Below, in pieces: positions 31,479 through 47,265 of a stretch of DNA of 64,000 nt. Every line of letters starts with the position of its first letter. The first letter of the stretch is position 1. A model generated the notes under the pieces. The model was not told the origin of the DNA and did no database searches. It saw only the letters and a list, made by a program, of their open reading frames with translations. Location: positions 58,050-122,049 of the forward strand of contig JADJCA010000011.1 in NCBI GenBank assembly GCA_016703425.1, in the 5' to 3' direction. Made by a program: the position numbers and the translations under genes. This DNA comes from Myxococcales bacterium (lineage in GTDB: Bacteria; Myxococcota_A; Polyangia; Polyangiales; Polyangiaceae).

Positions 31479-33173
31479 ATGTTTGAGCGCTTCGGATCGC
31501 CGTGTGTGATCGCCGCCGCTTCTGTCATTGTGCTGGCTGCGACCCCTGCCGCGGCGCAGGGAACGCCTCCTGCGCCTCCCGGCGGGGATGCGCCGCCTGC
31601 TGCTGCCCCGGCCCCTGCGCCGGCGGCGGGAGCTTCGGCGGGTGGGTCGCTTTCAACGGGGGGCTTGACGCTCGGCGGTAGCGCCGACGTTCCGCCGCCT
31701 CCACCGGCCGGCGGCAGCGCCGACGGGAAGCCAGAGGAAAAGTGGGAAGCCCCCACCGCCGGGTACAACGGCGCGTTCTACGTCAAGAGCAAGAACGACT
31801 GGTTTCATCTGTATTTCAACGGACGCCTGCAGTTCGACTTCACGGCGCCGTTCGCCGCGGGTGCCTACCAGGCGAACCTCTTCCCCGGGTTTCTCGTGCG
31901 CCGCATGCGCATCGAGAACAGCGGCTGCTTCGGCGACAACTTCTGTTACTCGATGCAGCCGGACTTCGGCCCGACCTCAGTGACGGGCACGAACCAAGCG
32001 GCCGCGCCGCGCACGTCGAGCATCATGGCGACGGCCTTCGTGAACTACAAGGCGCATGACCTCCTGCAGGTCATGATGGGTATCGTTCAGACGCCCTTCG
32101 GCCTCGAGGCTCGCACGACGTCGAAGTACAAGGATTTCCTCGAAGACGGCATCTCGACCAAGTTCGCCGTCCCGAACGCCACCGAGCAAGGCGTCACGCT
32201 CTGGGGCGCTACCGACAAGAACATGTTCAACTACGAAGTTGGCGTGTTCGGCGGCGATGGCGCTGCGCGCACCAACGCCGACGGTCGCTTCGACTTCATC
32301 GGTCGCGTCTTCGCGATCCCGATGGCCGGGTCGAAGGGCCCGGTGGAGAACCTTCAGATCGGCGTCTCCGGCAAGTACGGGTCGCGCGACACGAAGAAGG
32401 TCAACTACGACATGCACAGCATCACGACCGGCAACGGCGTGGCGCTCTGGAGCCCGACCTACGCGGCGGGCGCTGCTGGAACGACCCGCATTCTCCCCGC
32501 TGGCGGCCAGATGGCCTTCGGTGGTGAGCTCCGCGTTCCCGTCGAGAACTTCGACCTCACCGGTGAGTTCCACTACGTGAGCAACAAGACCCGCGAAGAG
32601 CTCGACAGCCGCCTCGGCTCGGGCAACTTCGAACGTTACGGCGAGCTCTCGGGCATCGCCTACTACGCGCAAGCCAGCTACTGGTTCGGCAAGCGCGACA
32701 TCAACGGCCAGCCGGGCTACTTCCGCATCGCGAAGATGAAGTTCAAGAAGCCCGAGGCTCCGAAGGCTGGCGACAAGCCGAAGGGTCCCGACACGGCGTG
32801 GCGCGTCCGCGTTCGCTACGACCAGGTCATGGCGAAGTACGAAGGCGCGAAGGACAACGGCGCTGTCACGCAACGCGCCGTGAACGGCGTCCAGGTTCCC
32901 TTCTACGACGGCGACATCAACATCCGGTCGCTCCAGGCGGGCGTCGACTACTTCTTCACGAAGCACGTCGGCATGCGCCTGAACTACGGCCTCTACGTTA
33001 CGCCGGACTCGGCACCGGCGACGCCGGAGCCGGGCTCCATCGCCCCGGTTGCCACGGAGAAGCAGCGCGCTGCCGTTCCCGGTAACCGTCTCGCTGCGGG
33101 CCTCAACGACGACGCTCGTCGCGGAGCCCACTCGATCCACGAGCTCATCCTGCGCGCCCAGGTTGCCTTCTGA
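31479..33173 (+). CDS. outer-membrane porin, probably OprO/OprP-like phosphate-selective porin family, with a Pro/Ala/Gly-rich N-terminal extension
   Basis: Signal peptide. About 100 aa low-complexity region (PPAPPGGDAPPAAAPAPAPAAG). Long beta-rich body. C-terminal aromatic residue (..RAQVAF). GGTGGAG RBS. Family call made from overall pattern only. Confidence 0.5.
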   Translation: MFERFGSPCVIAAASVIVLAATPAAAQGTPPAPPGGDAPPAAAPAPAPAAGASAGGSLSTGGLTLGGSADVPPPPPAGGSADGKPEEKWEAPTAGYNGAFYVKSKNDWFHLYFNGRLQFDFTAPFAAGAYQANLFPGFLVRRMRIENSGCFGDNFCYSMQPDFGPTSVTGTNQAAAPRTSSIMATAFVNYKAHDLLQVMMGIVQTPFGLEARTTSKYKDFLEDGISTKFAVPNATEQGVTLWGATDKNMFNYEVGVFGGDGAARTNADGRFDFIGRVFAIPMAGSKGPVENLQIGVSGKYGSRDTKKVNYDMHSITTGNGVALWSPTYAAGAAGTTRILPAGGQMAFGGELRVPVENFDLTGEFHYVSNKTREELDSRLGSGNFERYGELSGIAYYAQASYWFGKRDINGQPGYFRIAKMKFKKPEAPKAGDKPKGPDTAWRVRVRYDQVMAKYEGAKDNGAVTQRAVNGVQVPFYDGDINIRSLQAGVDYFFTKHVGMRLNYGLYVTPDSAPATPEPGSIAPVATEKQRAAVPGNRLAAGLNDDARRGAHSIHELILRAQVAF

Positions 33174-33545: not shown

Positions 33546-33634
33546 CATTTCGGCGCGTGGTGGAGGTTCGTTTTGGACAGCGATCCGTGCGAGACTTGGG
33601 AGGGTCGCTCTCGGCGCGAGCGCCCCCTTCATTC

Positions 33635-34537
33635 ATGGCTCCCGACGACGACGAGGTTACAAAGGTCGGTGTTACCGCCGACATCATCCCGGGCGCGCGC
33701 AGCCGCGACAAGGCGTACCTCGTAGCGCTCTCCGGCGAGACCATCGGCCAGCTCTACCCCCTTCCCGCCGGCGAGACGGTCGTCGGGCGCGGCACGCAGG
33801 CGACCGTGAAGCTCAACGACGACGGCATCTCGCGCAAGCATGCGCGGCTCCTTCGGCGCGGCGGCGAGGTGCTCGTCGAAGACATGCAGAGCGCCAACGG
33901 AACCTACGTCAACGACGAAGAGGTCCGCGGCCAACGGCTCCTCCGCGATGGCGACAAGATTCGCCTCGGTGCGACGACGGTGCTCAAGTTCACCTACCAC
34001 GACGAGGTCGAGGAGAACTACCGGCAGCGGATGTACGACGCGGCGCTCCGTGACGGCCTCACCAACGCCTTCAACAAGAAGTTCTTCCTCGACCGCTTGA
34101 ACACCGAGCTGTCCTATGCGCGAAGGCACAACAGTCCGCTCTCGCTCGTGATGTTCGACGTCGACTTCTTCAAGCGACTGAACGACTCCTTCGGCCACCT
34201 CGCCGGCGACGACGTCCTCGTGAAGCTCGCGGCCATCGGACACCAGTCCGTCCGCACGGAGGACGTCTTCGCGCGCTACGGCGGCGAGGAGTTCGCCGTC
34301 CTCTGCCGCGCTTGCCCTCTGCACCACGCCGGCGCCTTCGCCGAACGGCTGCGCGCGCTCGTCGCCACCACGTCCTTCGAGTGGAACGGGACGCGGCTGC
34401 CGGTGACCATTAGCTGCGGCGTCGCCGGGTATCCCGAGTGCGGCGCCCAGGCGCCCGAGCAGCTCATCATGGCGGCCGACGCGGCGCTCTACGAAGCGAA
34501 GCGCGCCGGCCGCGACCGCGTCATCGTCCGCTCGTAG
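33635..34537 (+). CDS. FHA domain and GGDEF domain protein (diguanylate cyclase)
   Basis: FHA (VVGRG..ATVKLNDDGISRKHARL...GEVLVEDMQSANGTYVNDE) followed by GGDEF with RYGGEEF. ATG 33635 preferred over GTG 33557, which sits 12 nt after the terminator. Confidence 0.8.
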   Translation: MAPDDDEVTKVGVTADIIPGARSRDKAYLVALSGETIGQLYPLPAGETVVGRGTQATVKLNDDGISRKHARLLRRGGEVLVEDMQSANGTYVNDEEVRGQRLLRDGDKIRLGATTVLKFTYHDEVEENYRQRMYDAALRDGLTNAFNKKFFLDRLNTELSYARRHNSPLSLVMFDVDFFKRLNDSFGHLAGDDVLVKLAAIGHQSVRTEDVFARYGGEEFAVLCRACPLHHAGAFAERLRALVATTSFEWNGTRLPVTISCGVAGYPECGAQAPEQLIMAADAALYEAKRAGRDRVIVRS

Positions 34538-35498
34538 CGAGCTCGACGCCCGCGTCCGCCGACGCTCGAGCCGGAGCGCGAGGAGCTTGTGTGCGCGCTT
34601 CCGCCCAGAGGAAGACGAACGCGAGCCACAATCCGTCGGCGACGAAGAGATGCACGAGCTGGAGCCACACGGGGGCCAAGAGCGCGACATTCACGAGGCC
34701 GAGAGCGAACTGCACGACGACGAGGGCGGTGACGGCGCGCGACCAAAAGACAGCTACCGGCGAAGCGGAGCTGCCGCGCATGAGCGCCGCGAGCGCCAGC
34801 GCCGCGAGGCTCACCGCCGAGGCGAAGAGCGGATGGAGAATGCGCAAGCGGAGCAGGACGTGCGCGCTCGACTGGAGCTCGGCGGCGAGACCTTCAGAGA
34901 AGCTCGTGGCGGGAAACAAGGTGTCGCCGAGGGCAGCGATGCCGCCGCTCATACCGACGACCATGAGGCCCGCCGCAACAAGCGGGAGCAGCGCGCGTTG
35001 GAGCAGCGGCAACCGTGAAGGCGACACCTCGCGAGACGCATCCGGTGGGACGCGACCGCCATGAATCGCCAGCGCAATGGCCGCCAGCAAGAGGAACGTG
35101 TTGCCCAGGTGCAGCACCATCGAGAGGGCGCGCTTGAGCGACGCGTTTTGGGCTACCAGCTCGAAGAGCACCAGGAAGCGACCGATGAGCGCCTCCACGA
35201 TCGTCAACAAGAGGACCGCTACCGACGCGATGCGAGGCAGCGCGCCGCGGGGAAACGAGCGAAAGGCCTGCACCATCAGCGCGAGCGCGAAGAAGAGAAC
35301 CAGGCCACTGGTCACGCGATGCGACAACTCGATTACGGTCTTTTGGGCGGGCGCCACCGGCAAGGCGACGCCATTGCAGAGCGGCCAGTGTGCGCCGCAG
35401 CCCGCGCCGGAGCCGCTCGCGCGAACGTAGGCGCCCCAGACGATGACCAAGAGCGTGTACCCGAGGGTCGCCCACGCGAGCTTTTGGAAGCGGCTCAT
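34521..35498 (-). CDS. ctaA: heme A synthase (CtaA/COX15 family)
   Basis: N-terminal LVIVWGAYVRASGSGAGCGAHWPLCNG motif and eight predicted TM helices, typical of CtaA. Trimmed to ATG 35498. Confidence 0.8.
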   Translation of the reverse strand: MSRFQKLAWATLGYTLLVIVWGAYVRASGSGAGCGAHWPLCNGVALPVAPAQKTVIELSHRVTSGLVLFFALALMVQAFRSFPRGALPRIASVAVLLLTIVEALIGRFLVLFELVAQNASLKRALSMVLHLGNTFLLLAAIALAIHGGRVPPDASREVSPSRLPLLQRALLPLVAAGLMVVGMSGGIAALGDTLFPATSFSEGLAAELQSSAHVLLRLRILHPLFASAVSLAALALAALMRGSSASPVAVFWSRAVTALVVVQFALGLVNVALLAPVWLQLVHLFVADGLWLAFVFLWAEARTQAPRAPARASADAGVELATSGR

Positions 35499-35562
35499 CG
35501 GGGCCTGCTCTACTACGCCTGCGCGGTGACGCAAGCCGGGCCCCGGGCCCCGAGCGAGCGTC

Positions 35563-35787
35563 TCACGGACGCAAGGAGCGCCGCTCCGCGCGCGCGAAGA
35601 GCGCTTCGCGGACGACCACGACGAGGAACATGAGAAACGACAGCGTTCCGAGCCCTTGCCCGAGCGAGAGCGCGAGCAAGATGGGCCACACGGTTGGATT
35701 GAAGACCGACCACACCATGAGCGGCAAGGCGACGATGGCCAACACGGCGGCGGCGCGAATGAGTCGCTCGTTCGAGGGTATTTTCAC
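35563..35787 (-). CDS. small hydrophobic membrane protein (about 74 aa), tentative
   Basis: GTG overlapping the upstream stop (GTGA). Two hydrophobic helices (AAVLAIVALPLMVWSV, PILLALSLGQGLGTLSFLMFLVVVV). High GC3. Confidence 0.3.
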   Translation of the reverse strand: MKIPSNERLIRAAAVLAIVALPLMVWSVFNPTVWPILLALSLGQGLGTLSFLMFLVVVVREALFARAERRSLRP

Positions 35788-36479
35788 GGGTGGCCCCCAT
35801 CGGCGGCGGGCGCCGGCATGGCATCGCGCGGAAGCCCGCCGTCTTCGAGGAGCTCTTTGCCGAGTTTGGTGACGGGATGGGCGAAGCCATGGCAGCCCGG
35901 GCTCGCGCAAGAGACCTGACCGCTTCGAAGGTCCGCTAGGGAGGACGCGTGGTCGGCCTTCTGAAGCCACCGGGGAGCTGTCATCGTGTGGCAACTGACG
36001 CAGTTGGCGTTGGGCAAGGGCCGAAGAATGCGGATCTCGTGCTTCGCCCGCTCAAGCGGCACGTTGCGAAAATCTTTCAGGTAGAGGGCCACGTGCCTCA
36101 TGCCGCCGAGTTTCGTGACGACGAAGCCATACATGCCGTAGTCCTGGTGGCAGTTGTAGCAATTGCTCGCGCCGAAGGAGCGGCTTCTCGCGTGAATGCC
36201 CGCGAGCGATGTAGTGTTCGGGTCGCTTGAATCGTTGGCGTGGGGCTCCATCACGTGGCACGAGCCGCAGAACGCGCGGGACTGGGTCGCCTGAAAACCA
36301 CTGACGTTGGCAAAGAGCGCGGTAGCGATGGGAAACACGAAGAGGCCGAAGAGCAGCCAGAGCTTCGTGGCCAGCGTAAACGCGGGCCGCCGCACGAGGT
36401 ATGTGACCAAGATTGCGATGGCGATCGACGCGCAGGCGAGCGCCAGCCATTCGATCCATGTGGCGCCGTGGTGTTGCAT
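35784..36479 (-). CDS. membrane-anchored tetraheme c-type cytochrome, NapC/NirT/NrfH-like (3 CxxCH plus 1 Cx4CH)
   Basis: Trimmed to ATG 36479. Two N-terminal hydrophobic helices, then CGSCH, CYNCH, CVSCH and CASPGCH. Confidence 0.7.
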   Translation of the reverse strand: MQHHGATWIEWLALACASIAIAILVTYLVRRPAFTLATKLWLLFGLFVFPIATALFANVSGFQATQSRAFCGSCHVMEPHANDSSDPNTTSLAGIHARSRSFGASNCYNCHQDYGMYGFVVTKLGGMRHVALYLKDFRNVPLERAKHEIRILRPLPNANCVSCHTMTAPRWLQKADHASSLADLRSGQVSCASPGCHGFAHPVTKLGKELLEDGGLPRDAMPAPAADGGHP

Positions 36480-36497
36480 CGTCGTCGGGGTGTGGCC

Positions 36498-37760
36498 ATG
36501 AAAGCGGGCCCGCAGCGCCAATGCAAGGTGCGTGAGCGAAGTCGCGTGTCGCCCCGTGACGTCCTCGCCCTCTCTGCACTCGCCGCGTCCACCCTCGTCG
36601 CGGGCGTCGCCGGGGCCGATCCGCTCCGATTGCGCGGCGACGCGCTGGTGCAAACTCGCTCCCCCGCCCCGACGGGGCTCTTGGTCCTCCGCGGCGAAGA
36701 CGGAAAGAGATTCGGCAAGACCATCGTCGACGCGGAGACCGTCGCGTGGCTCGGCGCCTTCAGTGGTGACGACGCCTCCGTAGGAGACGTCCTGACGCTC
36801 TCGGTGCGAGCGCGTCACGCGCCGACCGGTTCTGAGCTGCGCGCGGGCCGCATGGTCGTCACCATGGGAGCCATTCGCCCGACCCACGTGGACGGCGCGC
36901 GCGGGCTCGTGCGGGCCTTCGGCGGTACGACGCTCGAGGCCTTCGCCGGCGCCCCGGTGGCGCGGCGCTTCGACTACCGCACCTTCGATTTTGCGACCGG
37001 CGGTCGACTTGGTCAGTCGGTCGGTGACGCCGCGGCCGTCGGGGTGTCCTACGCGCAGCGGCACAATGGCGCGAGCCTCGCCGACGAGGAGGTTGGCGCG
37101 GACGTGGCGGTCGCGCCAGTTCCCTGGTTGTCGCTAGCGGGCCGCAGCGCCATGGATCTCGTGAGCCGCGGCGTAACCGACGCGCTTGGCTCGCTCTCGC
37201 TCACGGGCCAGCGAACGAAGGCGGAGCTCTTCGCCACGCACCGTTCGCCAGGACGGCTCCTGCCGGCCACGTCGCTCTTCTCCGTGCTGGGCGACTACGC
37301 CGCGACGAGTGCCGGCACCACGCTTCGCCTCCGCGCGTTCCCGCGCCTCGACTTGATCGCGAGCGGCGTGGTGCAAACGCAGGCAAAGGACGTCGGGGGG
37401 CAGGGCTCGGGGCGCGTGGTGCTCGCCCTCGACGACGATTGGAATGGTTCCATCTTGCTCGAAGGTCGGCGCGTCACGTTGGGACAGGCGCGTTGGAGCG
37501 GAGTCCGAACGGCGGCCGTCATTCCCCTCAGTCGCGCCTACCGACTCGGCACCGAGATCGAACTGGTGCGGCCCGACGATCCGCGCGGTCGTGGCTCGCT
37601 GTGGCCTTGGGCCTTCGTCAGCATGAGCCGTCGCTCCGCGTCGGGTCTCGAATTTGGCGTCGGCGTCGAGGCCTCAAGCGGCCCCGATCGCCGTGAAGAG
37701 GTCGTGGCGCTCGGGCGCGTATCGGTCGAGTGGGACTCGCTGCGGGGCGCGACGCGATGA
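36498..37760 (+). CDS. secreted beta-strand-rich protein, candidate outer-membrane porin-like partner of the downstream cytochromes
   Basis: Trimmed to ATG 36498 (signal peptide LALSALAASTLVAGVAGA). Many short amphipathic alternating segments. Stop overlaps the next ATG (ATGA). The start is only 18 bp from the divergent NrfH-like start, so one of the two starts may be wrong. Confidence 0.5.
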   Translation: MKAGPQRQCKVRERSRVSPRDVLALSALAASTLVAGVAGADPLRLRGDALVQTRSPAPTGLLVLRGEDGKRFGKTIVDAETVAWLGAFSGDDASVGDVLTLSVRARHAPTGSELRAGRMVVTMGAIRPTHVDGARGLVRAFGGTTLEAFAGAPVARRFDYRTFDFATGGRLGQSVGDAAAVGVSYAQRHNGASLADEEVGADVAVAPVPWLSLAGRSAMDLVSRGVTDALGSLSLTGQRTKAELFATHRSPGRLLPATSLFSVLGDYAATSAGTTLRLRAFPRLDLIASGVVQTQAKDVGGQGSGRVVLALDDDWNGSILLEGRRVTLGQARWSGVRTAAVIPLSRAYRLGTEIELVRPDDPRGRGSLWPWAFVSMSRRSASGLEFGVGVEASSGPDRREEVVALGRVSVEWDSLRGATR

Positions 37761-38791
37761 GAACAGGGTGGCTCTTCGCGTGCCTCGGCCTCGCGTCTTG
37801 CGCGGGCCTTTTGGGCATCAAATCCAGCGACCGAGAGCGCAGCTTCGAGCACCGCGCTCACCTCGTGCGCGGCGTGTCTTGCACGAGCTGCCACCTCGGG
37901 ATGGGCCAAGCTGGCGACACTGGGCCCCTCCATCTTCCGAGCAAGACGCGCTGCCTCGAGTGCCACACCGCTGCCCACGACCCTGGCGACTGCGCGAGCT
38001 GCCACGGGCGATCAAGCGCTCGGCAGGGGGCGGAGCTCGCCAAGCGGCATCTCGTCTTCGATCATCGCTCGCACATCGCGCGTCAGGACGGCCAGTGCGT
38101 GCGCTGCCACACGGAGGCCGGCAGCAAAGACGCGCCTTCGCTGCGGCCCGCCATGGCTGTTTGCTTGTCGTGCCACGCGCACAAGGATCAATGGAAGACT
38201 CGCGAGTGTGACGCGTGCCACGTTGATCTTCCGGCGGAGCTGGCGAAGCCGTCGAGCCACGTGGTGCACGAAGGAGACTTTCTTCGTGAGCACGGCGTGC
38301 GAGCTGCGAGCAGTCGCGATCTCTGCGCGACGTGCCACGCGGAGCCCTTCTGCGCCGCTTGCCACGGCACCACGGCGCCCACGCTGCCGCATCGCCTCGA
38401 CTTCGGGAAGACCACGAGCCCGTCCTTGCATCGCGCCGGCTTCCGTCTCAGGCACGCCGACGAAGCGCGCGCGAACCCGGGCCTCTGCACGACCTGCCAC
38501 AGCGACGAGCGCACGTGCAGCGACTGCCACGCAGCGAGGCGCGTGGGCGCAGCGCCCGGCATCCGAACACCACACCCGCCCGGGTGGGTCCGCGCTCGCG
38601 GTGGCGAACACGGGCGCGCCGCACGCATGGAGCCGGGCTCCTGCGCCGCGTGTCACGGCGGCGCCGGTGAAGCCCTGTGCGTTGGCTGTCACAAGGTCGG
38701 AGGCCCCGGTGGCAACCCGCACGGTCCGGGCTTCGGTAGTGCGCTCGACAAGGGGCGCGATCAACCGTGCCGGCAGTGTCACGCGCCATGA
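37757..38791 (+). CDS. multiheme c-type cytochrome lipoprotein, 13 CxxCH motifs
   Basis: Lipobox FACLGLASC. 13 canonical CxxCH in about 340 aa. Translationally coupled on both sides (ATGA). Confidence 0.8.
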   Translation: MRTGWLFACLGLASCAGLLGIKSSDRERSFEHRAHLVRGVSCTSCHLGMGQAGDTGPLHLPSKTRCLECHTAAHDPGDCASCHGRSSARQGAELAKRHLVFDHRSHIARQDGQCVRCHTEAGSKDAPSLRPAMAVCLSCHAHKDQWKTRECDACHVDLPAELAKPSSHVVHEGDFLREHGVRAASSRDLCATCHAEPFCAACHGTTAPTLPHRLDFGKTTSPSLHRAGFRLRHADEARANPGLCTTCHSDERTCSDCHAARRVGAAPGIRTPHPPGWVRARGGEHGRAARMEPGSCAACHGGAGEALCVGCHKVGGPGGNPHGPGFGSALDKGRDQPCRQCHAP

Positions 38792-40587
38792 AGAAATGGC
38801 GCGTTCTTTTGCTCGTGATCCTGGTCGCGGCGCTCGCTCTGGCGTTCGCGTCTTTTCGCACCGTCGTGGAGCGTCCCGCGCCCGTCACGCCGACTCAGTT
38901 CATCCCGCCCACCTGGTCCGAGGCACGCAAGTCTCCGATGCACGAGGCTCACGTCGGCAAGCGAAAGATCGCCTGCGCCGAGTGCCACGGCGCGGGCTCC
39001 GAAGCGGGCTCTGAAGCGCGCTTCGACGCGCCACCCGACCTGGCCGCTTGCGCGCGCAGCGACTGCCACGCGGAGGCGAGCGCCCGGGCCCACGTGGGGA
39101 GCACGTCGCAGAAGACCACGTGCCTGACGTGCCACAGTTTTGCGGCGACGCCGACGACAACGCCGTGCGTCGGATGCCACGAGAAGAAGCCGCTCGATGG
39201 CGGCGCCGCCGGAGTGGCGGCAAACCTCGCGCATCATGCGACGCCGGACGCGAAGTGTGGCGCTTGCCACAAGGTGCATGCGGCCGCCGACGCCGGTCGA
39301 CGAAAGAACGGCGACTGCTCGGGCTGCCACGCCGACGCCGGCGACGGCCATGGGGCCCAGGCGCGCAAAGAGCCTGACGCGTCGCTCGATCCGGCGACGT
39401 GCGCCAGTTGCCACGGACCCCACGAGGGGAAGGCCGCCGCAACGCAGCGCTGCGTCTCGTGCCACGCGCCGACCGAAGCGCGCGGTCCGGCGTCCGCGCG
39501 CCACGGGCTCGCGGGCCAGAACGCTCCCCGCGTGCTCGTCGCGAACATCGGGCCGCGGAGCCACGAAGCGTGCACGAGCTGCCATGCGCCGCACGACACG
39601 AAGCTCGAGCACATAAAGCCGTGCGCCGGCTGTCACGAGCGCCAACGCGGCGCGCTTCGCCCGGGCCACGACCAGTGCGTCGGCTGCCACAAACCCCACG
39701 AGAACGTCGATGCGGCGCGCGCGGCTTGCGCTTCCTGCCACACGGCGAAGGTCGCGCTCGCTGCGGCCCGCGTGCCCGAGCATGCACGCTGCGAGAGCTG
39801 CCACTCGCCCCACGCGGCGACGCCGGCGAAAGACGCGTGCCGCCGGTGCCACGAGCCCGTCTCCCATGGCGTCTCTCACGGCAAGGCAGGCGAGTGCGTC
39901 CAGTGTCACGTGCCTCACACGGCGCCGCCGAATCAAGGGGCGGCGCGCGCATCGGCCTGCGTCACTTGCCACAAGAACGTGCCGGCGGCGGCCCACGCCG
40001 CGAAGGCCACGTGCGTCGGATGCCACAAGCCGCATGGGTTTGGCGGTCTCCAGGCCTCCACCACGTTCTGCAGCAGCTGCCACCAAGAGGCGGCGAAGGC
40101 CGTGCGGACAGGCCATGGCGACTGCGCCAAGTGTCACGCGTCCGTTCACACACCGAAGCAGACGCAGCCGTGCGGCTCCTGCCACAAGGAGGAAGCGAAG
40201 ACTTCACCCAAGGGCCATCAGCGTTGCGAAAGCTGCCATGCCCCGCACCAAGGGAGCTCGCCAAAGGTTGCGAGTTGCACCGGTTGCCATCAAAAAAATG
40301 GCACCGGTCCCCACAAGAACCTCGCCAAAGGGTGCGCCACGTGTCACCGGCCTCACGGTCCGAAGGGCGTCGCGACGCCTCCCGCGTGCAAGACATGTCA
40401 CGTTCAATCGACGCTGCCCGGGCTTCACCAGAAGCCATCCCACGGCGCGTCATGCGAACGTTGCCACTCTTCGCACGAGGCGCCGCGAGCCGATCGAGCG
40501 TCGTGCACCGGCGGATGTCACACGGATCGTCGCGGGCACCAGCCCGATGCAAAGGTCTGCAACGGGTGCCACATCTTCAGCGATTGA
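38788..40587 (+). CDS. giant multiheme c-type cytochrome, about 27 heme-binding motifs (25 CxxCH, 1 Cx4CH, 1 Cx3CH) in about 600 aa, N-terminal signal/anchor
   Basis: Counted motifs directly in the translation (CAECH ... CNGCH). N-terminal hydrophobic segment (LLLVILVAALALAFASF). Confidence 0.8.
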   Translation: MKKWRVLLLVILVAALALAFASFRTVVERPAPVTPTQFIPPTWSEARKSPMHEAHVGKRKIACAECHGAGSEAGSEARFDAPPDLAACARSDCHAEASARAHVGSTSQKTTCLTCHSFAATPTTTPCVGCHEKKPLDGGAAGVAANLAHHATPDAKCGACHKVHAAADAGRRKNGDCSGCHADAGDGHGAQARKEPDASLDPATCASCHGPHEGKAAATQRCVSCHAPTEARGPASARHGLAGQNAPRVLVANIGPRSHEACTSCHAPHDTKLEHIKPCAGCHERQRGALRPGHDQCVGCHKPHENVDAARAACASCHTAKVALAAARVPEHARCESCHSPHAATPAKDACRRCHEPVSHGVSHGKAGECVQCHVPHTAPPNQGAARASACVTCHKNVPAAAHAAKATCVGCHKPHGFGGLQASTTFCSSCHQEAAKAVRTGHGDCAKCHASVHTPKQTQPCGSCHKEEAKTSPKGHQRCESCHAPHQGSSPKVASCTGCHQKNGTGPHKNLAKGCATCHRPHGPKGVATPPACKTCHVQSTLPGLHQKPSHGASCERCHSSHEAPRADRASCTGGCHTDRRGHQPDAKVCNGCHIFSD

Positions 40588-42112
40588 CGCGACCGTCGAC
40601 GTGGTTCTTCGCGCCCGCCGGCGTCAGCGAGAGCGTTCCGACAAAACCGCTCGTGAGGCCGCTGTGGCAAATGCTCCCTCCGCACTGGGTCGCCGCGGCG
40701 TGAGGAGGAGGCGGCGGCGTGGCGTGGCACGCGCCGCAGGCCCGGGCCGCCGGCCCGCTGTTCCACGCCGGCGTCTGAAGCGAACCGCCGACGCCCGTAT
40801 GGCAAGCGGTCTCGGAGCATGTCTTGGTCGCCGCGTCGTAGCGGGCGCGGGCGCCACCGGCGAGCGCCGGGCCTGCGAGGCGAACGACGGCACCGGCACC
40901 GACCGGATGTTTGCCGACGGGGATCACGTGGCACGTCGCGCACGCGACGGGCCGCGACGATGACGGCTTTGCGTGCGCGGTGTGAGCCCCCGTCGTGGGC
41001 CACGGATCGTCGCCGCTACCGTGGCAAGCGCCGCACTGCCCCGAGCCGTCGCCCAGGTCGATGCGGCCGTTCAAGTGTAGGCGAACAGGCTGCGTGAGCG
41101 AGGCGCCGTCGGCCGCCACTTCATGGTGACACTGTCGACAGGGTCCATCGTAGTGAGACGCGGGCGGCGAGCGATGGCAGTCGTTGCACCCCACGCTGGC
41201 CTCGCCCCATGCCGGCGTCTCGCGGTTGCCGCCCCGCGCGTGGCAACTTCCAGCGCAGCGCTTGGACGCTGGGTCGAAGGTGGCGCCACGGCCGGCGAGC
41301 GTCTCGTCGAGCCAAACTTCAACGTGACCGTCGCCGTGCGCGCCGGCCAACTCGAAGGTCGGCGGAACAGGATGACACGTCTTGCACGCGCGACCCTCCG
41401 CCTGCGTCGCCCCGGCATTGACATGCGCGCGATGCGAGTCGCGCGGCGTGCTCGGCGCCGCGCCGCATGAATTCTTCGGCGGGCTCGCGCGGTCGCCGTC
41501 GCCGTGGCACGTGCCGCAGGCGAGCGGTCCGCCCTCGCGCGAGTGGCATGAGGTGCACGCCGTCGCACCGGGCGCTGCGACGCGGCCCGGCGCCCCGCTC
41601 AGCGCTCCGCTGTTGGGGGCGCCTTGATGGCACTTGCCACACGCGTCGACATCCGCAGCGTCAAGCATCGGTCGGTAACGCGAGGCACGAAGGGTAGACG
41701 CATGCCCCTCCGGCAGCCTCGGATCGCCGTAGCGCGGCGAGTGCACGCCTCCCGCCGTCCCCGGTGCGCCTTCGTCGAGCCAGCGCGTGAGCAGCGCCCG
41801 CTCCTCGGCCGAGAGGAGCGCCGCGTGATCGGAGCGCGCGAGCGCATCGACGATGGCCGGCGGTTGGCCGGCGGTCGCCGATCGGCCCGCGGCAGTGCAG
41901 GACATAACGCTCACGTAAGAGTCAGCCTTCCATCCCGCCGCCGGTGCAGGGCCTGCGTGACACGGCGCGCATCGTGCGCCCAGAAGGGCGCCGACGCCGT
42001 CGCGATAGGAGACCACGGCCGGCCGTTCAACACGTTCGCTCGTGCACGCGGAACTGGCGCCCAGGGAAAACAAGAGCGATAAGGAGACCCTCTTGAGGCC
42101 CGGTCGAAACAC
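40577..42112 (-). CDS. multiheme c-type cytochrome, about 13 heme motifs (10 CxxCH, 1 Cx3CH, 2 Cx4CH), secreted
   Basis: Trimmed to GTG 42112 giving MFRPGLKRVSLSLLFSLGASSAC. Motifs CAPCH...CGGSICH. Convergent with the 27-heme gene (11-bp 3' overlap). Confidence 0.7.
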   Translation of the reverse strand: MFRPGLKRVSLSLLFSLGASSACTSERVERPAVVSYRDGVGALLGARCAPCHAGPAPAAGWKADSYVSVMSCTAAGRSATAGQPPAIVDALARSDHAALLSAEERALLTRWLDEGAPGTAGGVHSPRYGDPRLPEGHASTLRASRYRPMLDAADVDACGKCHQGAPNSGALSGAPGRVAAPGATACTSCHSREGGPLACGTCHGDGDRASPPKNSCGAAPSTPRDSHRAHVNAGATQAEGRACKTCHPVPPTFELAGAHGDGHVEVWLDETLAGRGATFDPASKRCAGSCHARGGNRETPAWGEASVGCNDCHRSPPASHYDGPCRQCHHEVAADGASLTQPVRLHLNGRIDLGDGSGQCGACHGSGDDPWPTTGAHTAHAKPSSSRPVACATCHVIPVGKHPVGAGAVVRLAGPALAGGARARYDAATKTCSETACHTGVGGSLQTPAWNSGPAARACGACHATPPPPPHAAATQCGGSICHSGLTSGFVGTLSLTPAGAKNHVDGRVNR

Positions 42113-42182: not shown

Positions 42183-43508
42183 ATGATTCTGTCTCGATCA
42201 ACGGGGATCCTCTTTGCAGTTTCACTCGTGGGTCTGAGCGGCCTGGTGGGCTTCGCGTGCAGCGGAAACGACGGCAAGGACGGAGCTGCTGGCGCCCTCG
42301 GCGCTGCCGGCGTCGCGGGCCCGCAAGGACCGTCTGGCGCCCCGGGCGCCGTGGGCCCCGCCGGCGACGGCGGCGCCGGCGCAGTCCTCTCCGGTGCCTG
42401 CACGACGCCGTGCCACACCTTCAACGGCGTGGTCGATCAGTGGCGCTTCAGCAATCACTCGCACCCGCAGGAGAACGAGATCGGCGGCGGGGTCTGCGGC
42501 AACTGCCACGGCGTCGATGGCATCGAGCAGCGCGTGGGGGGCAACTACGTGCTCAGCGCGGACGCCGGTGCGCTCCCCACCAACGTCGCGCAAGGTCACA
42601 TCAACTACAAGACCGTGTCCGGGTCCTCGACGGAGATCACGTACGCGGGCGCATCGACCATCGGTCGCATCCACTGCGCGACGTGCCACGAGTTCAACTC
42701 AACGACCGATCCGCACGTGACGGGCAAATACACGGAGCGACAGGCGCCCATTCGTGTCGCCGGTGGCGCCAACGACGTGGCCTACATCGAAAAGACGCTC
42801 GCCGACGCGGGCGGCGCTGTCGTGGGTCAGTCGGTCGGATACAAGACCGCGAACGTCTGCATCTTCTGCCACAAGTCCCGCAAGGACATCTCGGTCTACA
42901 TCACCGCCAACAACAACCTGTCGCGCAACTGGGGACCGCACGAAGGTCCGCAAGCCGACATCTTCACGGGCAAGGGCGGCTACGAGTTCGCGGGCAAGAG
43001 CTACGGCACGGCCGTCCACACCACCATCGCGAACGGCTGCGTCGACTGCCACATGCAGGCGGTGGCCGGCAACAGCAACGTGCCGGACCACACGATGAAG
43101 CCCAAGGTGGCCTACTGCAAGACGTGCCACACGACGTACACCGGCACGGACTTCAACATCGATTCGGGCCGGACCATCGTGAAGGGGCTTCTCACGGAGC
43201 TTCAGCAACTCCTCGACGAGCGCGGCTTGCTCACGCGCACGCCCGCAGCGCCGTACCAAAACCTCACGGACGAGGAGAAGGCCGACGGGCAGTTCCACCT
43301 CGACAAAGCGAGGAAGCCGGCCGGCACCGTCGACGCGGATTTGGCGGGTGCACTCTACAACTACCTGCTCGCGGCGCGCGGCAAGGACCTCGGTGTCCAC
43401 AACCCGCGCTACACCAAGCAGTTGCTCTTCGACTCGATCGTGAAGCTCGGAACGCCGGGCGACGGCGGAACGTACACGCCGAAGACGCTCACCATCCGGC
43501 CGAACTGA
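42183..43508 (+). CDS. lipoprotein with collagen-like (Gly-X-Y)12 repeat fused to a hexaheme c-type cytochrome domain
   Basis: Lipobox LVGFAC. GKD-GAA-GAL-GAA-GVA-GPQ-GPS-GAP-GAV-GPA-GDG-GAG triplets. CTTPCH (Cx3CH) plus CGNCH, CATCH, CIFCH, CVDCH, CKTCH. AAAGGGAG RBS before ATG 42183 (ATG 42165 is an alternative). Confidence 0.75.
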   Translation: MILSRSTGILFAVSLVGLSGLVGFACSGNDGKDGAAGALGAAGVAGPQGPSGAPGAVGPAGDGGAGAVLSGACTTPCHTFNGVVDQWRFSNHSHPQENEIGGGVCGNCHGVDGIEQRVGGNYVLSADAGALPTNVAQGHINYKTVSGSSTEITYAGASTIGRIHCATCHEFNSTTDPHVTGKYTERQAPIRVAGGANDVAYIEKTLADAGGAVVGQSVGYKTANVCIFCHKSRKDISVYITANNNLSRNWGPHEGPQADIFTGKGGYEFAGKSYGTAVHTTIANGCVDCHMQAVAGNSNVPDHTMKPKVAYCKTCHTTYTGTDFNIDSGRTIVKGLLTELQQLLDERGLLTRTPAAPYQNLTDEEKADGQFHLDKARKPAGTVDADLAGALYNYLLAARGKDLGVHNPRYTKQLLFDSIVKLGTPGDGGTYTPKTLTIRPN

Positions 43509-43631: not shown

Positions 43632-45404
43632 ATGCTCCGAACGTCAGCGGTCCCCTTCGTTCTCCTCGCGCATCTCGTTACCGCTTGCAGCACCGACATC
43701 CCGACTGACGCCGCCGCCGCGGGCGACGCGGACGAGGGTCCCGGCGGCGCCGTCGCGGTCGGCGACGTCGCGCCCCGGCCCATTGCGCCGCCGGAGGAAT
43801 CGCCGGTGGCCTGCGGCGGTGTGGACTGCACGAAGCTGCCTCACGTCGACCCGTCACGGGTCACCTGCCAACAAGGCCAGTGTCAGGTGGCAAGGGCCTG
43901 CGCTCCAGGCTGGGGCCACTGTGGCAACGATCCGACAACCGGCTGCGAGACCGACCTCACGGCGACCGCCAGCTGCGGCGCTTGCTCAGTCCAGTGCGGT
44001 GGCCCGACCCCTCTGTGCGTGCCCGAGGAGGGCGGCGCGGCGCGCTGCGTCTCCTCCTGCGAGGGCACCCGAACGCCCACGGCCTGCGGCAACACGTGCG
44101 TGGACACCCAGAACGACCCCCTTCACTGCGGGGGGTGCGCGCCCTGCGGCGTTACCCTGAACGGTTCGGCCACTTGCAGTGGAGGCCTCTGTGGGCTTGC
44201 TTGCAATCCCGGGTTTCACCGCTGCGGGTCGACCTGTCGCGAAGACACGAGCGTCACCGCCTGTGGCCCTTCGTGCGCGACCTGCGCCGCGCCGCCACAC
44301 AACGGTGTCGCCGCGTGTGTTGCGGGAGCGTGCACCGTCGCTTGCGACGCCGGCTTCTACGCCGATGGCGGCACGTGCAAGCCGACTTACACGGTGAGCG
44401 GCGCTGCCGCCAACGTCGTCGCCTTCGACGTCGACAGCGCGGGCGGTATGCTCGCCGTCGCGCGCGGCACGGGAGAGCTGCGCTTCCAATGCTTCAGCCC
44501 CAACGGCATCCCGATGGGACCCGACCAACAGCTGACCTCGTTCGATGCAGCAACGACGGCGCCCGGGCGGGTGATGGTGGCGCGCTCCCGGGTCACCAAG
44601 CAGTCGCTTGTGCTCTGGCACGTCAGCGGACCGTCGGCCCACGAGGCGCATTACGCGTACGTGAGTGCGTCATGTCAGATTCAGAAGTCCGCGCCCCTCG
44701 CCACGACCGGCGGCAACATCTACCTCCAAGGTGTGGCCATCGACGATCAAGGCTTAGGCGCCGCCCTCTTGAACCTCGCGGGGCCCAAGGTCCGAGAGTT
44801 GGTTCAGTTCGACAAGAGCGGTGCCCCCCTCTCGGTCAACGACTTCGAAGCGTTCGGCGCCTACGACAGCCACTTGGCCATGCGACGCACGACCGGCGAG
44901 ACGATCATCGTAACGTCCACCTACGTGGCGCCGAAGTTTGAGCGTCACTACCGCCGCTTCAGCGGCGCCGGCGCCGCCATCGACCCGGAGTTCATCGCGA
45001 TCAACGGCCTCCTCGGCTCCGGTAGCTACGTGCGCGTCGGCATGGACGACGACGGTGCCTTCGTCGTCCTCGGCGAGATGACACGAATCCCCAACGCATG
45101 GGGGGCGACGTTCCACAACGCGACGGGCGCCGTCGTCGCCACGCTACCGGCCGCTGGCATGGCGGGCTATGCCGACACATTCGTGCCCGTGACGAGCAGC
45201 GGCGACTTCGTTTGGCCCATTCGTACCGCCATCACTTCGGCGCGCGAGCGCCGTTCCCCGGCGGGAGTCTTGGCCGGCGCGTCACCGTGGGGGTCGCCCT
45301 ACGCCAACACGCTCGAGCTGCGCCTCGATGCGAACGACTCGACGTACATGATCCTCAGCGGTGGCACTGGACGCACCGTCAAGAAGGACCCCTTCGCGCT
45401 CTGA
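43632..45404 (+). CDS. Cys-rich repeat lipoprotein (myxobacterial cysteine-rich repeat-like N-terminus, beta-propeller-like C-terminus)
   Basis: Lipobox LVTAC. About 200 aa with regularly spaced Cys (CGxC/CxxC... repeats about 35-40 aa apart). High GC3. Confidence 0.65.
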   Translation: MLRTSAVPFVLLAHLVTACSTDIPTDAAAAGDADEGPGGAVAVGDVAPRPIAPPEESPVACGGVDCTKLPHVDPSRVTCQQGQCQVARACAPGWGHCGNDPTTGCETDLTATASCGACSVQCGGPTPLCVPEEGGAARCVSSCEGTRTPTACGNTCVDTQNDPLHCGGCAPCGVTLNGSATCSGGLCGLACNPGFHRCGSTCREDTSVTACGPSCATCAAPPHNGVAACVAGACTVACDAGFYADGGTCKPTYTVSGAAANVVAFDVDSAGGMLAVARGTGELRFQCFSPNGIPMGPDQQLTSFDAATTAPGRVMVARSRVTKQSLVLWHVSGPSAHEAHYAYVSASCQIQKSAPLATTGGNIYLQGVAIDDQGLGAALLNLAGPKVRELVQFDKSGAPLSVNDFEAFGAYDSHLAMRRTTGETIIVTSTYVAPKFERHYRRFSGAGAAIDPEFIAINGLLGSGSYVRVGMDDDGAFVVLGEMTRIPNAWGATFHNATGAVVATLPAAGMAGYADTFVPVTSSGDFVWPIRTAITSARERRSPAGVLAGASPWGSPYANTLELRLDANDSTYMILSGGTGRTVKKDPFAL

Positions 45405-46521: not shown

Positions 46522-47265
46522 CTAGCGCGGGGCCACCGGCGGCGGCTTGCTCGACGTCTGGCGTCGCTCCGCGCGCGAGCGCGGATGCCGGATGTCCTTG
46601 CCGCGCGCCATGAAGACCACGAGCTCGGCGAGGTTGGTCGTGTGGTCGGCGATCCGCTCCAGGTATTTGGCGATCGATTGGGCCCGCGTGCATCGGTAGA
46701 TGTTGCGCGGGTTCTCCATCATGTAGGTCAATAGCTCGCGGAAAATCTGGGCGTAATAGGCATCGACCGTCGAGTCCCGTTCGATGACCTCTTGGGCCCG
46801 GTCGGCGTCGCCCTCCACGAACGCGTCGAGCGCCTCGCGAAGCATGGCCTGCGTGGCCTCCGCCATGTCGGAGAGGTTCGTGTACGGCTGGAGCGGCGGC
46901 TCTTCGTTGAGCTCGCGGACGCGTTCGCAGATGTTGACCGTCGAGTCGCCGATGCGTTCGATGTCGGTCGTGAGCTTGAGCGCCGTGGTGATGAAGCGGA
47001 GGTCTGACGCGACCGGCTGGCGACGCGCGAGGATGCGAAGGCATCGCTCGTCGATCTCCACCTCGAGCCGATTGATCTCTCGATCGCGCTCCATCGTTCG
47101 TTCGGCGAGCTCGCTGTCGCGATCAATGAGGGCCTTCATGGCCGAGACCAACATCTCTTCGACCTTGGAGCCCATGAGGATGAGGCGCTCTCGAAGGGTT
47201 CGGAGCTCGGCTTCGTATTGGAGGTCGGTATGGCTCTTCACGACGTGGTCCTCATCATCACCCAA
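46522..47265 (-). CDS. phoU: phosphate signalling complex protein PhoU
   Basis: Two PhoU repeats (..[20 protein letters not shown].. and ..[17 protein letters not shown]..). Directly downstream of pstB. Confidence 0.85.

Follow-up and report, generated by a model that had tools for sequence, protein, structure and literature searches.

The open reading frame (ORF) at 42183-43508 on the forward strand of a 64-kb stretch of a Myxococcales bacterium genome (contig JADJCA010000011.1), which we refer to as the window, is predicted to encode a lipoprotein in which a lipidated Cys is followed at once by a Gly-X-Y segment and then by a six-haem c-type cytochrome head of the NrfA/OcwA/OmhA type. We consider it probable that the product is a homotrimeric, collagen-stalked six-haem lipoprotein and part of a multihaem conduit. 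This reading is carried by the established sequence architecture, its conservation, the coupling of the tract to the lipobox, the homology of the head, and the gene context. Each part is of a known kind, in that the stalk is collagen-like, the anchor is that of a lipoprotein, and the head is of the NrfA/OcwA type; it is their combination that is new and widespread.

Architecture and conservation of the Gly-X-Y tract

The ORF opens with an ATG at 42183, closes with a TGA at 43506-43508, and yields a product of 441 amino acids (aa). We accepted this start codon because a GGGAG Shine-Dalgarno-like motif lies 8 nt 5' of it, an MxLxR N-terminus is common to the protein and its orthologues, and a 70-bp spacer separates it from the divergent start at 42112. 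Residues 1-26 (42183..42260, +) read as a signal peptide and lipobox, MILSRSTGILFAVSLVGLSGLVGFA-C. The lipobox, V-G-F-A-C, fits the PROSITE lipobox rule, and Cys26, which is invariant across 87 aligned orthologues, is the predicted lipidated N-terminus of the mature protein. The orthologues carry clearer lipoboxes than the window protein does (LAAC, LGAC, or AVAC), and the +2 residue after the lipobox Cys is Ser in the window protein and Gly, Ser, or Thr in most orthologues.

The collagen-like tract (aa 28-66; 42264..42380, +) consists of 13 Gly-X-Y triplets without interruption: GND GKD GAA GAL GAA GVA GPQ GPS GAP GAV GPA GDG GAG. The original prediction had likewise described an uninterrupted tract after the lipobox Cys but counted 12 triplets, omitting GND. 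It also had the six-haem domain following directly; all six haem sites are present, but one of them is a Cx3CH motif, and a non-periodic linker of six residues, AVLSGA (42381..42398, +; family consensus ..DGGxxLSGA), lies between the tract and haem 1. The head itself occupies aa 73-441 (42399..43505, +). Its haem motifs, all on the forward strand, are CTTPCH (motif 1, Cx3CH; 42399-42416), CGNCH (motif 2, aa 105; 42495-42509), CATCH (motif 3, aa 165; 42675-42689), CIFCH (motif 4, aa 226; 42858-42872), CVDCH (motif 5, aa 286; 43038-43052), and CKTCH (motif 6, aa 312; 43116-43130). A WGPHEGPQ motif (aa 250-257; 42930-42953, +) and three long C-terminal helices (aa 326-423; 43158-43451, +) complete the layout.

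A word-seeded search for close orthologues returned 451 homologues, of which the best 120 are about 430-445 aa long with 55-67% identity; 97 full-length sequences were analysed, and 87 entered the alignment. Where taxonomic labels were given, as for few of the best 120, they were Labilithrix, other Myxococcales, or "Deltaproteobacteria." All 97 full-length orthologues have a lipobox Cys followed by an uninterrupted Gly-X-Y run of 4-14 triplets (mode, 10-11), and in 86 of them the run begins 0-2 residues past the Cys. The loss of the tract in orthologues, which the original prediction had named as the observation that would speak against it, was thus seen in none. X and Y residues drift among the orthologues and the Gly period stays constant, with GPA, GPQ, GAP, and GPP the most frequent triplets. 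In most Myxococcota orthologues, a non-periodic linker of 9-12 residues (..DGGxxLSGA) joins the tract to an invariant CTxPCH, and the Cx3CH motif of haem 1 is invariant in all 87 aligned sequences.

The length of the tract stands well outside what the surrounding DNA offers. Elsewhere in the six frames of the window, runs with Gly at every third position reach at most 5; about 1e-9 runs of at least 13 would be expected, and none of 200,000 shuffles of aa 27-72 gave such a run. Tandem Repeats Finder (TRF) reports a weak 9-bp periodicity at 42336-42381, spanning the last four or five triplets; we rejected tandem-repeat expansion as the origin of the tract because this signal is too weak and too short to account for the whole of it.

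We searched for distant relatives exhaustively with HMMER using the haem domain alone (aa 70-441), so that the tract, excluded from the query, was unable to recruit matches. The search returned 919 cluster representatives at an E value of ≤1e-3 and 298 at ≤1e-10. Many matches are six-haem proteins of 330-390 aa with 30-40% identity and signal peptides of the low-G+C type; in these, "EGPxGPxG..." comes at once after the lipobox Cys, and the first CxxCH lies a few residues past the tract. A version of the protein, WP_146651752.1 (P0062), is present in the culturable Labilithrix luteola. Relatives outside the close orthologues, with identities of only 30-45%, combine a lipobox Cys, 3-23 triplets, and six haems, with, for example, 8 triplets in P0185, 16 each in P0177 and P0249, 20 in P0145, and 23 in P0122. 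The gap between the end of the tract and haem 1 has a median of 1-4 residues in other phyla.

A genome scan, with one genome per species, gave at least 582 confirmed stretches encoding a relative, and the best 80 loci were examined. On the Bacteroidota side, these belong to Saprospiraceae, Bacteroidales, Prolixibacteraceae, and Lentimicrobiaceae; the others come from Ignavibacteria, Kapabacteria, Chlorobiota, Latescibacterota, Anaerolineae, Dehalococcoidales, Chloroflexia, Acidimicrobiia and other Actinomycetota, Phycisphaerae, and Eisenbacteria. Nearly all of these 80 loci, when translated, have a lipobox Cys and 3-17 triplets. Judged by sequence, several hundred genome stretches, drawn from no fewer than eight bacterial phyla, share the collagen-stalk design. 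The tract is found at loci of 30 to 67% G+C, which argues that the tract is no by-product of a G+C-rich genome.

Triplet number rises with the G+C content of the locus among relatives in loci L003-L085 (Spearman 0.57, n = 65), with a median of 8 triplets below 45% G+C and 9.5 at ≥55% G+C. Phylogeny, envelope type, or codon composition could produce this trend. Five metagenomic relatives of 455-535 aa (P0189, P0222, P0226, P0234, and P0251) have nine haems together with a lipobox Cys and 5-10 Gly-X-Y triplets, and two of them, P0189 and P0222, carry a non-haem stretch of ~100 residues between the tract and the first haem motif. The six-haem relative P0209 has two separate Gly-X-Y segments. The nine-haem relatives and the doubled segment of P0209 suggest that the stalk has been reused with different heads.

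The tract is closely coupled to the lipid anchor. At least four triplets occur in about 230 of about 243 lipoprotein-type members and in none of about 14 members that have an ordinary Sec signal and no Cys, in counts that pool three sequence sets, were corrected by hand, and ignore shared ancestry. The correction concerned ten tract-bearing sequences that the lipobox pattern had misread as Sec and that we re-counted by eye as lipoprotein type: in nine of them a Cys immediately precedes the tract (as FYGC, LNSC, or MMSC, among others), and the tenth, P0209, has a lipobox-like Cys and a Gly-X-Y start near the N-terminus. The tract-less Sec members comprise five Phycisphaerae loci, three from Anaerolineales, Aggregatilineales, or Chloroflexia, and several metagenomic representatives; such forms thus occur in at least two unrelated phyla whose relatives have the tract. 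A minority of lipoprotein-type members, of which P0150 is the type, have a non-periodic tether of ~15 residues in place of the tract. The superfamily therefore has N-termini of three kinds: lipid plus collagen tract, which dominates, lipid plus short tether, and soluble. The claim of a collagen-like tract gains from distant homologues, in that the tract is found in other phyla and in low-G+C genomes and is absent from all homologues without a lipobox.

Residue usage within the tracts is also distinctive. Pro occupies X at a frequency of 0.45 versus 0.07 for Y in the genome set, and 29% of X versus 25% of Y positions in the Myxococcota set. Aromatic residues are nearly absent. Pairs of the form (K/R)-G-(D/E) are observed 46, 18, and 7 times in three sets for which 8.7, 8.1, and 1.7 would be expected, a 2- to 5-fold enrichment that none of 2,000 shuffles reached in each set when shared ancestry is ignored. 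Such pairs form inter-chain ion pairs that stabilise hydroxyproline-free triple helices.

The six-haem head and its gene neighbourhood

We modelled the window protein as a monomer with AlphaFold2 (AF2) from 87 orthologues. The model has a predicted local distance difference test (pLDDT) score of 79 and a well-defined haem domain, with long helices at aa 326-346, 385-400, and 408-423 at the end of the head. The fold of the head is matched by NrfA (PDB 6v0a, score 11.8), OcwA (6i5b, 11.5, 25% identity), octahaem nitrite reductase (8rv0, 11.2), and OmhA (6qvm, 10.8), and at about 5 by HAO and MccA (6m0p, 4rkm). With a profile built from relatives of the Bacteroidota type, the match to OmhA extends along all of the six-haem region (E value, 5.5e-16), and further matches are OcwA (5.3e-14), MtrC domain IV (8.5e-12, weak), and NrfA (1e-9). 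The profile of the Myxococcota orthologues, run against PDB sequences, finds mainly collagens through the tract, and NrfA only at 0.04-0.1. The window protein has the shared superfamily fold, including the C-terminal three-helix module. Profile and model together indicate that the head is homologous to the OmhA/OcwA surface reductases and has an NrfA-like fold.

All five CxxCH motifs and the single Cx3CH are invariant, and at least six further His residues outside the motifs are invariant as well (H92/H94, H178, H253, H279, H303, and H406). The window protein has no CxxCK active-site haem motif and is therefore no NrfA. NrfA proper, the nitrite reductase, was rejected on this ground and because its models score below cut-off (far below for NCBIfam NF008339, 13.6 versus 595 bits; Pfam PF02335, 19.3 versus 24.1). 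A WGPH(H/E)GPQ motif is found throughout the family, with WGPHHGPQ as its form in other phyla, and can be aligned with "GVHHPQ" of OmhA. Each haem of OcwA with open (five-coordinate) coordination has a His-His motif above it, and OmhA keeps these histidines (PMC6703420, PMC9250108). By this analogy, one haem of the window protein may keep an open substrate site, which we offer only as a lead. OmhA and OcwA are cell-surface terminal reductases of Gram-positive iron reducers (PMC6703420, PMC9250108), and the three C-terminal helices correspond to the oligomerisation module of the NrfA/HAO/ONR superfamily (PMC9250108).

By prediction, the neighbouring genes of the window are arranged as a porin-cytochrome conduit that draws on the quinol pool, and this arrangement is shared with two Labilithrix loci, L001 and L002. 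Since single-linkage clustering merged all cytochromes, neighbours were compared by reading the maps by eye and by Pfam searches on representatives. A putative quinol dehydrogenase, a NapC/NirT four-haem membrane cytochrome (35784..36479, -; PF03264, 42 bits; three CxxCH and one Cx4CH), is also encoded in L001 and L002. A 74-aa hydrophobic (membrane) protein (35563..35787, -) starts with a GTG, in a 4-nt overlap with the NapC/NirT stop, and this points to translational coupling of the two genes; genes of 73 and 75 aa occupy the same place downstream of NapC in L001 and L002.

A 421-aa protein (36495..37760, +) is a putative outer-membrane porin and probably an outer-membrane barrel, given a signal peptide and an AF2 model (pLDDT 75) with 20 strands in aa 76-412. 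A Pfam scan of this protein gave no match; it has 768 homologues, the few labelled ones being from Labilithrix and other Myxococcota, and its gene keeps its position adjoining a 13-haem gene in both Labilithrix loci. The 13-haem cytochrome encoded beside it in the window (353 aa; 37730..38791, +) is homologous to a 301-aa cytochrome near the collagen-haem gene in locus L083 (E = 6e-26). BLASTP found no similarity between the 421-aa barrel and the 402-aa protein of L083, and the module of a 402-aa protein with a 301-aa or 13-haem cytochrome is present in only 4-7 of the loci examined and so is not universal.

A 27-haem cytochrome of 606 aa with an N-terminal hydrophobic segment (38767..40587, +) is conserved in L001 and L002. 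With 25 CxxCH, one Cx3CH, and one Cx4CH, or about one haem per 22 residues, it may form a long periplasmic haem wire. The 13-haem lipoprotein cytochrome of 511 aa (40577..42112, -; lipobox ..GASSAC; 10 CxxCH, one Cx3CH, and two Cx4CH) is divergent from the collagen-haem gene with start codons 70 bp apart, as had been described, and the two genes also adjoin in L001 and L002. As in an Mtr/Pcc-type conduit, a predicted barrel, 13- and 27-haem cytochromes, and two lipoprotein cytochromes are encoded together; MtrC/MtrF domains gave only subthreshold or weak matches.

Partners vary by phylum, and the constant theme, by our reading of the maps, is a quinol-oxidising module with multihaem cytochromes and, in diderms, a barrel. 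In Bacteroidota-type loci, the collagen-haem gene has a CRP/FNR-family regulator before it and, after it, genes for a monohaem lipoprotein and a beta-barrel of the DUF5777 family (234 bits), as well as for two seven-haem products, a cytochrome accompanied by cytochrome b561 and a NapC-like protein. The 129-aa monohaem lipoprotein and the DUF5777 barrel follow in loci L027 (9125-10437), L009, L023, L050, and L057, which are from Bacteroidota and Chlorobiota, and Saprospiraceae loci additionally carry NrfC-like and NrfD proteins. We found no mention of DUF5777 in the literature searched.

The window also encodes, directly downstream of the collagen-haem gene, a secreted Cys-rich protein of 590 aa (43632-45404, +) with a weak MXAN_6577-like match (23 versus 100 bits); this gene is not conserved beside the cytochrome gene in Labilithrix. 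Farther out lie a phosphate-selective porin O/P (31479-33173), an ORF with a GGEEF motif that may, by this motif, encode a GGDEF-type protein (33557-34537), a CtaA/COX15 haem A synthase (34521-35534, -), and, assigned by eye in the region to 48898, a probable PhoU (46522-47265, -) and PstB (from 47258, -).

Stalk, sidedness, and alternative readings

We infer the triple helix, the trimer, its rigidity, the membrane and side it occupies, and the direction of electron flow, and the mechanism that we favour would work as follows. Three chains would wind their Gly-X-Y segments into one parallel collagen triple helix, giving a homotrimer that carries three lipid (acyl) anchors and, at its opposite end, 18 haems. 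The helix would form a thin, stiff rod whose length is set by the triplet number: at 0.286 nm per residue, 13 triplets would span ~11 nm, most relatives ~7-9 nm, and P0122 up to ~20 nm. The rod would lift the redox head a fixed distance off the anchoring membrane, across the periplasm, cell wall, or lipopolysaccharide (LPS) layer, so that the raised head could exchange electrons with partners or substrates beyond the reach of a membrane-hugging protein. In Labilithrix-like Myxococcota, the protein would be one part of a conduit with NapC/NirT, the 13-, 27-, and 13-haem cytochromes, and the 20-strand barrel; in members from Actinomycetota and Chloroflexota, the anchor would have to be in the cytoplasmic membrane, with the head reaching into the wall.

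To our knowledge, three-chain packing in a triple helix is the only reason for Gly at every third residue in a Pro-rich segment with X/Y asymmetry. Polyproline-II bundles, such as the snow-flea antifreeze protein, require turns every ~10 residues, and the window tract has none. Triple helices of ten triplets are marginal alone but gain stability from a trimeric domain to which they are joined, (GPP)10-foldon being an example, and the predicted stalk of the window protein is tethered at both ends, by the lipid anchor and the head. The AF2 monomer gives aa 45-70 a pLDDT below 50, as expected of a single chain, and is uninformative on the trimer either way. The oligomeric state of the superfamily is plastic, with NrfA a dimer, HAO and MccA trimers, and ONR a hexamer.

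Several observations weigh against a collagen-stalked trimer. The window tract has Pro at only 4 of 26 X/Y positions and is thus poor in imino acids, its end, GDG GAG, puts Gly in the Y position, and 13 triplets without hydroxyproline would be only marginally stable alone. The search for the Pfam Collagen domain that had been proposed as a check gave a divided answer: PF01391 scores 22.4 bits on the window protein (E = 1e-4), under the gathering threshold of 27.2 bits, but is passed by relatives with longer tracts (P0177, 36.0; P0122, 37.9; P0145, 38.9 bits), and precomputed matches are present on several orthologues. The nearest solved relatives are dimers or monomers. About 13 lipoprotein-type relatives have no tract or only three triplets, and the existence of tract-less lipoprotein-type and soluble relatives indicates that the tract is dispensable for folding of the head. 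Finally, the tract-lipobox and residue statistics do not take phylogeny into account.

We also entertain, as a tentative extension that we hold to be somewhat doubtful, a widespread and so far overlooked class of lipid-anchored, collagen-stalked cytochromes in diderms and monoderms of at least eight phyla, with the triplet number tuned to an envelope layer and the haem-1 groups clustered. The helix would end 1-11 residues before haem 1, so that three haem-1 groups would sit around the three-fold axis and join three six-haem wires into one 18-haem unit. The 4-23 triplets (~3-20 nm) would be matched to the thickness of the periplasm, peptidoglycan, or LPS, and the 1.5-nm rod may pass through the partner barrel. 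Such a class would offer extracellular electron transfer a new structural means of spanning fixed nanometre gaps.

Within the favoured reading, a distal, acceptor-facing reductase is the most likely role on comparative grounds, because the head resembles OmhA, OcwA, and MtrC. The suggestion that the protein may be the terminal reductase of the conduit gains support from this homology to OmhA/OcwA and from the conserved cluster with a barrel, NapC/NirT, and three large multihaem cytochromes. A serious alternative, possible although we lean against it, keeps the trimeric stalk and turns it towards the periplasm, as a fixed-height relay from the quinol dehydrogenase to barrel-embedded cytochromes or as a reductase of small soluble molecules, anchored either in the cytoplasmic membrane (outer leaflet) or in the outer membrane (inner leaflet). 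Homologues from Actinomycetota and Chloroflexota can sit only in the cytoplasmic membrane, the gene is always near quinol-oxidising modules (NapC/NirT, NrfCD-like, or cytochrome b561), and a stalk of 7-11 nm would fall short of the width of a typical periplasm. The NrfA-like fold and the alignment of WGPH(H/E)GPQ with the "HH" motif of OmhA would suit a small-molecule reductase, and OcwA also reduces oxyanions (PMC7720022). This alternative has to contend with the best sequence matches being the surface reductases OmhA, OcwA, and MtrC domain IV rather than NrfA, with the lack of a CxxCK haem, and with the six conserved non-motif His residues, which suffice as second His ligands for all six haems. 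The second lipoprotein cytochrome and the barrel, moreover, fit a porin-cytochrome layout.

The tract might instead be a monomeric, flexible tether of the polyproline-II type that gives the lipoprotein reach and forms neither a triple helix nor a trimer. Lipoproteins commonly have an unstructured tether behind the lipidated Cys, relatives of the P0150 type have just such a non-periodic segment, and the window tract is low in Pro and in AF2 confidence; the closest solved homologues, too, are not trimers (PMC6703420). We find this unlikely, as a flexible tether gives no reason for an unbroken Gly period in hundreds of sequences across phyla in which X and Y drift, and leaves the preference of Pro for X over Y and the (K/R)-G-(D/E) enrichment unexplained.

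Very improbable, in our judgement, is a tract that serves mainly as a binding module for mineral surfaces, matrix polymers, or another collagen-like chain (in a hetero-trimer), after the manner of Scl1/2 and Lcl. NCBIfam names Scl1/2 and Lcl as adhesins, its SclA, SclB, and Lcl models match the tract weakly, and the repeat regions of PgcA are proposed Fe(III)-oxide binders (PMC5732950). Against this, the tract lies 0-2 residues from the lipidated Cys and 1-11 from haem 1, which leaves little free surface between membrane and head, no second collagen-like gene is conserved in the neighbourhood, and the X/Y residues are not conserved as a specific site would need. The weakest reading, incidental low-complexity sequence made of the Gly, Ala, and Pro codons of a G+C-rich genome and without structural role, can point to a window of 67% G+C, an Ala- and Gly-rich tract, the weak TRF periodicity, and the longer tracts of relatives at higher G+C, but it is refuted for practical purposes by the lack of any other run above 5 in the window or of 13 in any shuffle, by retention of the tract down to 30% G+C and in 97/97 orthologues, and by its strict coupling to the lipobox.

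Comparison with known systems and implications

The closest characterised heads belong to OmhA, an S-layer undecahaem cytochrome of Carboxydothermus ferrireducens, and OcwA, a nonahaem cytochrome of Thermincola potens, which share the homologous haem domain and the C-terminal three-helix bundle. They differ from the window protein in having 11 or 9 haems instead of 6, in lacking both lipobox and Gly-X-Y tract, and in their Gram-positive thermophile hosts; OcwA is a mixture of monomer and dimer in solution (PMC6703420). The pentahaem nitrite reductase NrfA (PDB 6v0a, 1qdb) is a soluble periplasmic dimer with neither lipid anchor nor collagen tract. Among cytochromes of similar genetic setting, MtrC/OmcA of Shewanella and OmcB of Geobacter are lipid-anchored and multihaem and are encoded beside an outer-membrane barrel and periplasmic multihaem cytochromes, but they have another overall fold and haem number and no collagen-like segment. 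The MtrB barrel has 26 strands, compared with 20 predicted for the 421-aa barrel of the window.

The stalk, in turn, resembles those of Scl1/Scl2 (Streptococcus), BclA (Bacillus), and Lcl (Legionella), which have uninterrupted Gly-X-Y without hydroxyproline, Pro mainly at X, and charge pairs. The layout is also alike, with a globular head on a trimeric stalk fixed to the envelope, if the window protein is indeed a trimer. The stalks of these proteins are roughly 20 to >80 triplets long, against 4-23 in the cytochrome family, their anchors are LPXTG or exosporium anchors, and their heads are adhesin or C1q-like rather than redox modules. Functional analogies, with no sequence relationship to the window protein, are offered by Braun's lipoprotein Lpp, a lipid-anchored trimeric rod of fixed length that sets the envelope distance as a coiled coil, and by ColQ-acetylcholinesterase, C1q, and the collectins, which carry catalytic or recognition heads on collagen stalks, use hydroxyproline, and have no haem.

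The nearest published idea, and the only repeat-linker cytochrome that we found in the literature, is the Pro-Thr repeat linker of PgcA from Geobacter sulfurreducens, an extracellular trihaem lipoprotein with a repetitive Pro-rich segment between functional parts (PMC5732950). The PgcA repeats are of the PTx/PAx type and lie between haem domains, circular dichroism revealed no collagen-like structure, and nothing indicates that the protein trimerises (PMC5732950). In the literature searched, we found no paper on a collagen-like segment in a multihaem cytochrome; a Tenderiales hexahaem cytochrome and Thermincola TherJR_1122 are named in papers. The word collagen is absent from two surveys of multihaem cytochromes, Pfam and NCBIfam have no family for the whole protein, and relatives bear the public names "hypothetical protein" or "collagen-like protein." The impression that this architecture had no precedent among cytochromes thus agrees with our finding no paper or curated family that describes it.

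Work on extracellular electron transfer is still establishing how electrons get across the fixed gaps in the cell envelope. The solutions known so far are periplasmic cytochromes that diffuse, cytochromes inserted in barrels, and cytochrome filaments; a rigid stalk of defined length with a multihaem head would, if the favoured reading is true, add to them. It would also widen the range of bacterial collagen, known from pathogen adhesins and from spore or phage fibres, to include respiratory proteins, and its natural triple helices of 4-14 triplets would be very short ones, with the lipid anchor and the globular head apparently stabilising them. For bioengineering, stalks that vary naturally in length suggest a simple means of fixing how far a redox centre stands from a membrane or electrode. 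The predicted stalked cytochromes occur in many uncultured lineages of soil, sediment, and wastewater, where their redox role is overlooked under the present labels "hypothetical" and "collagen-like protein."

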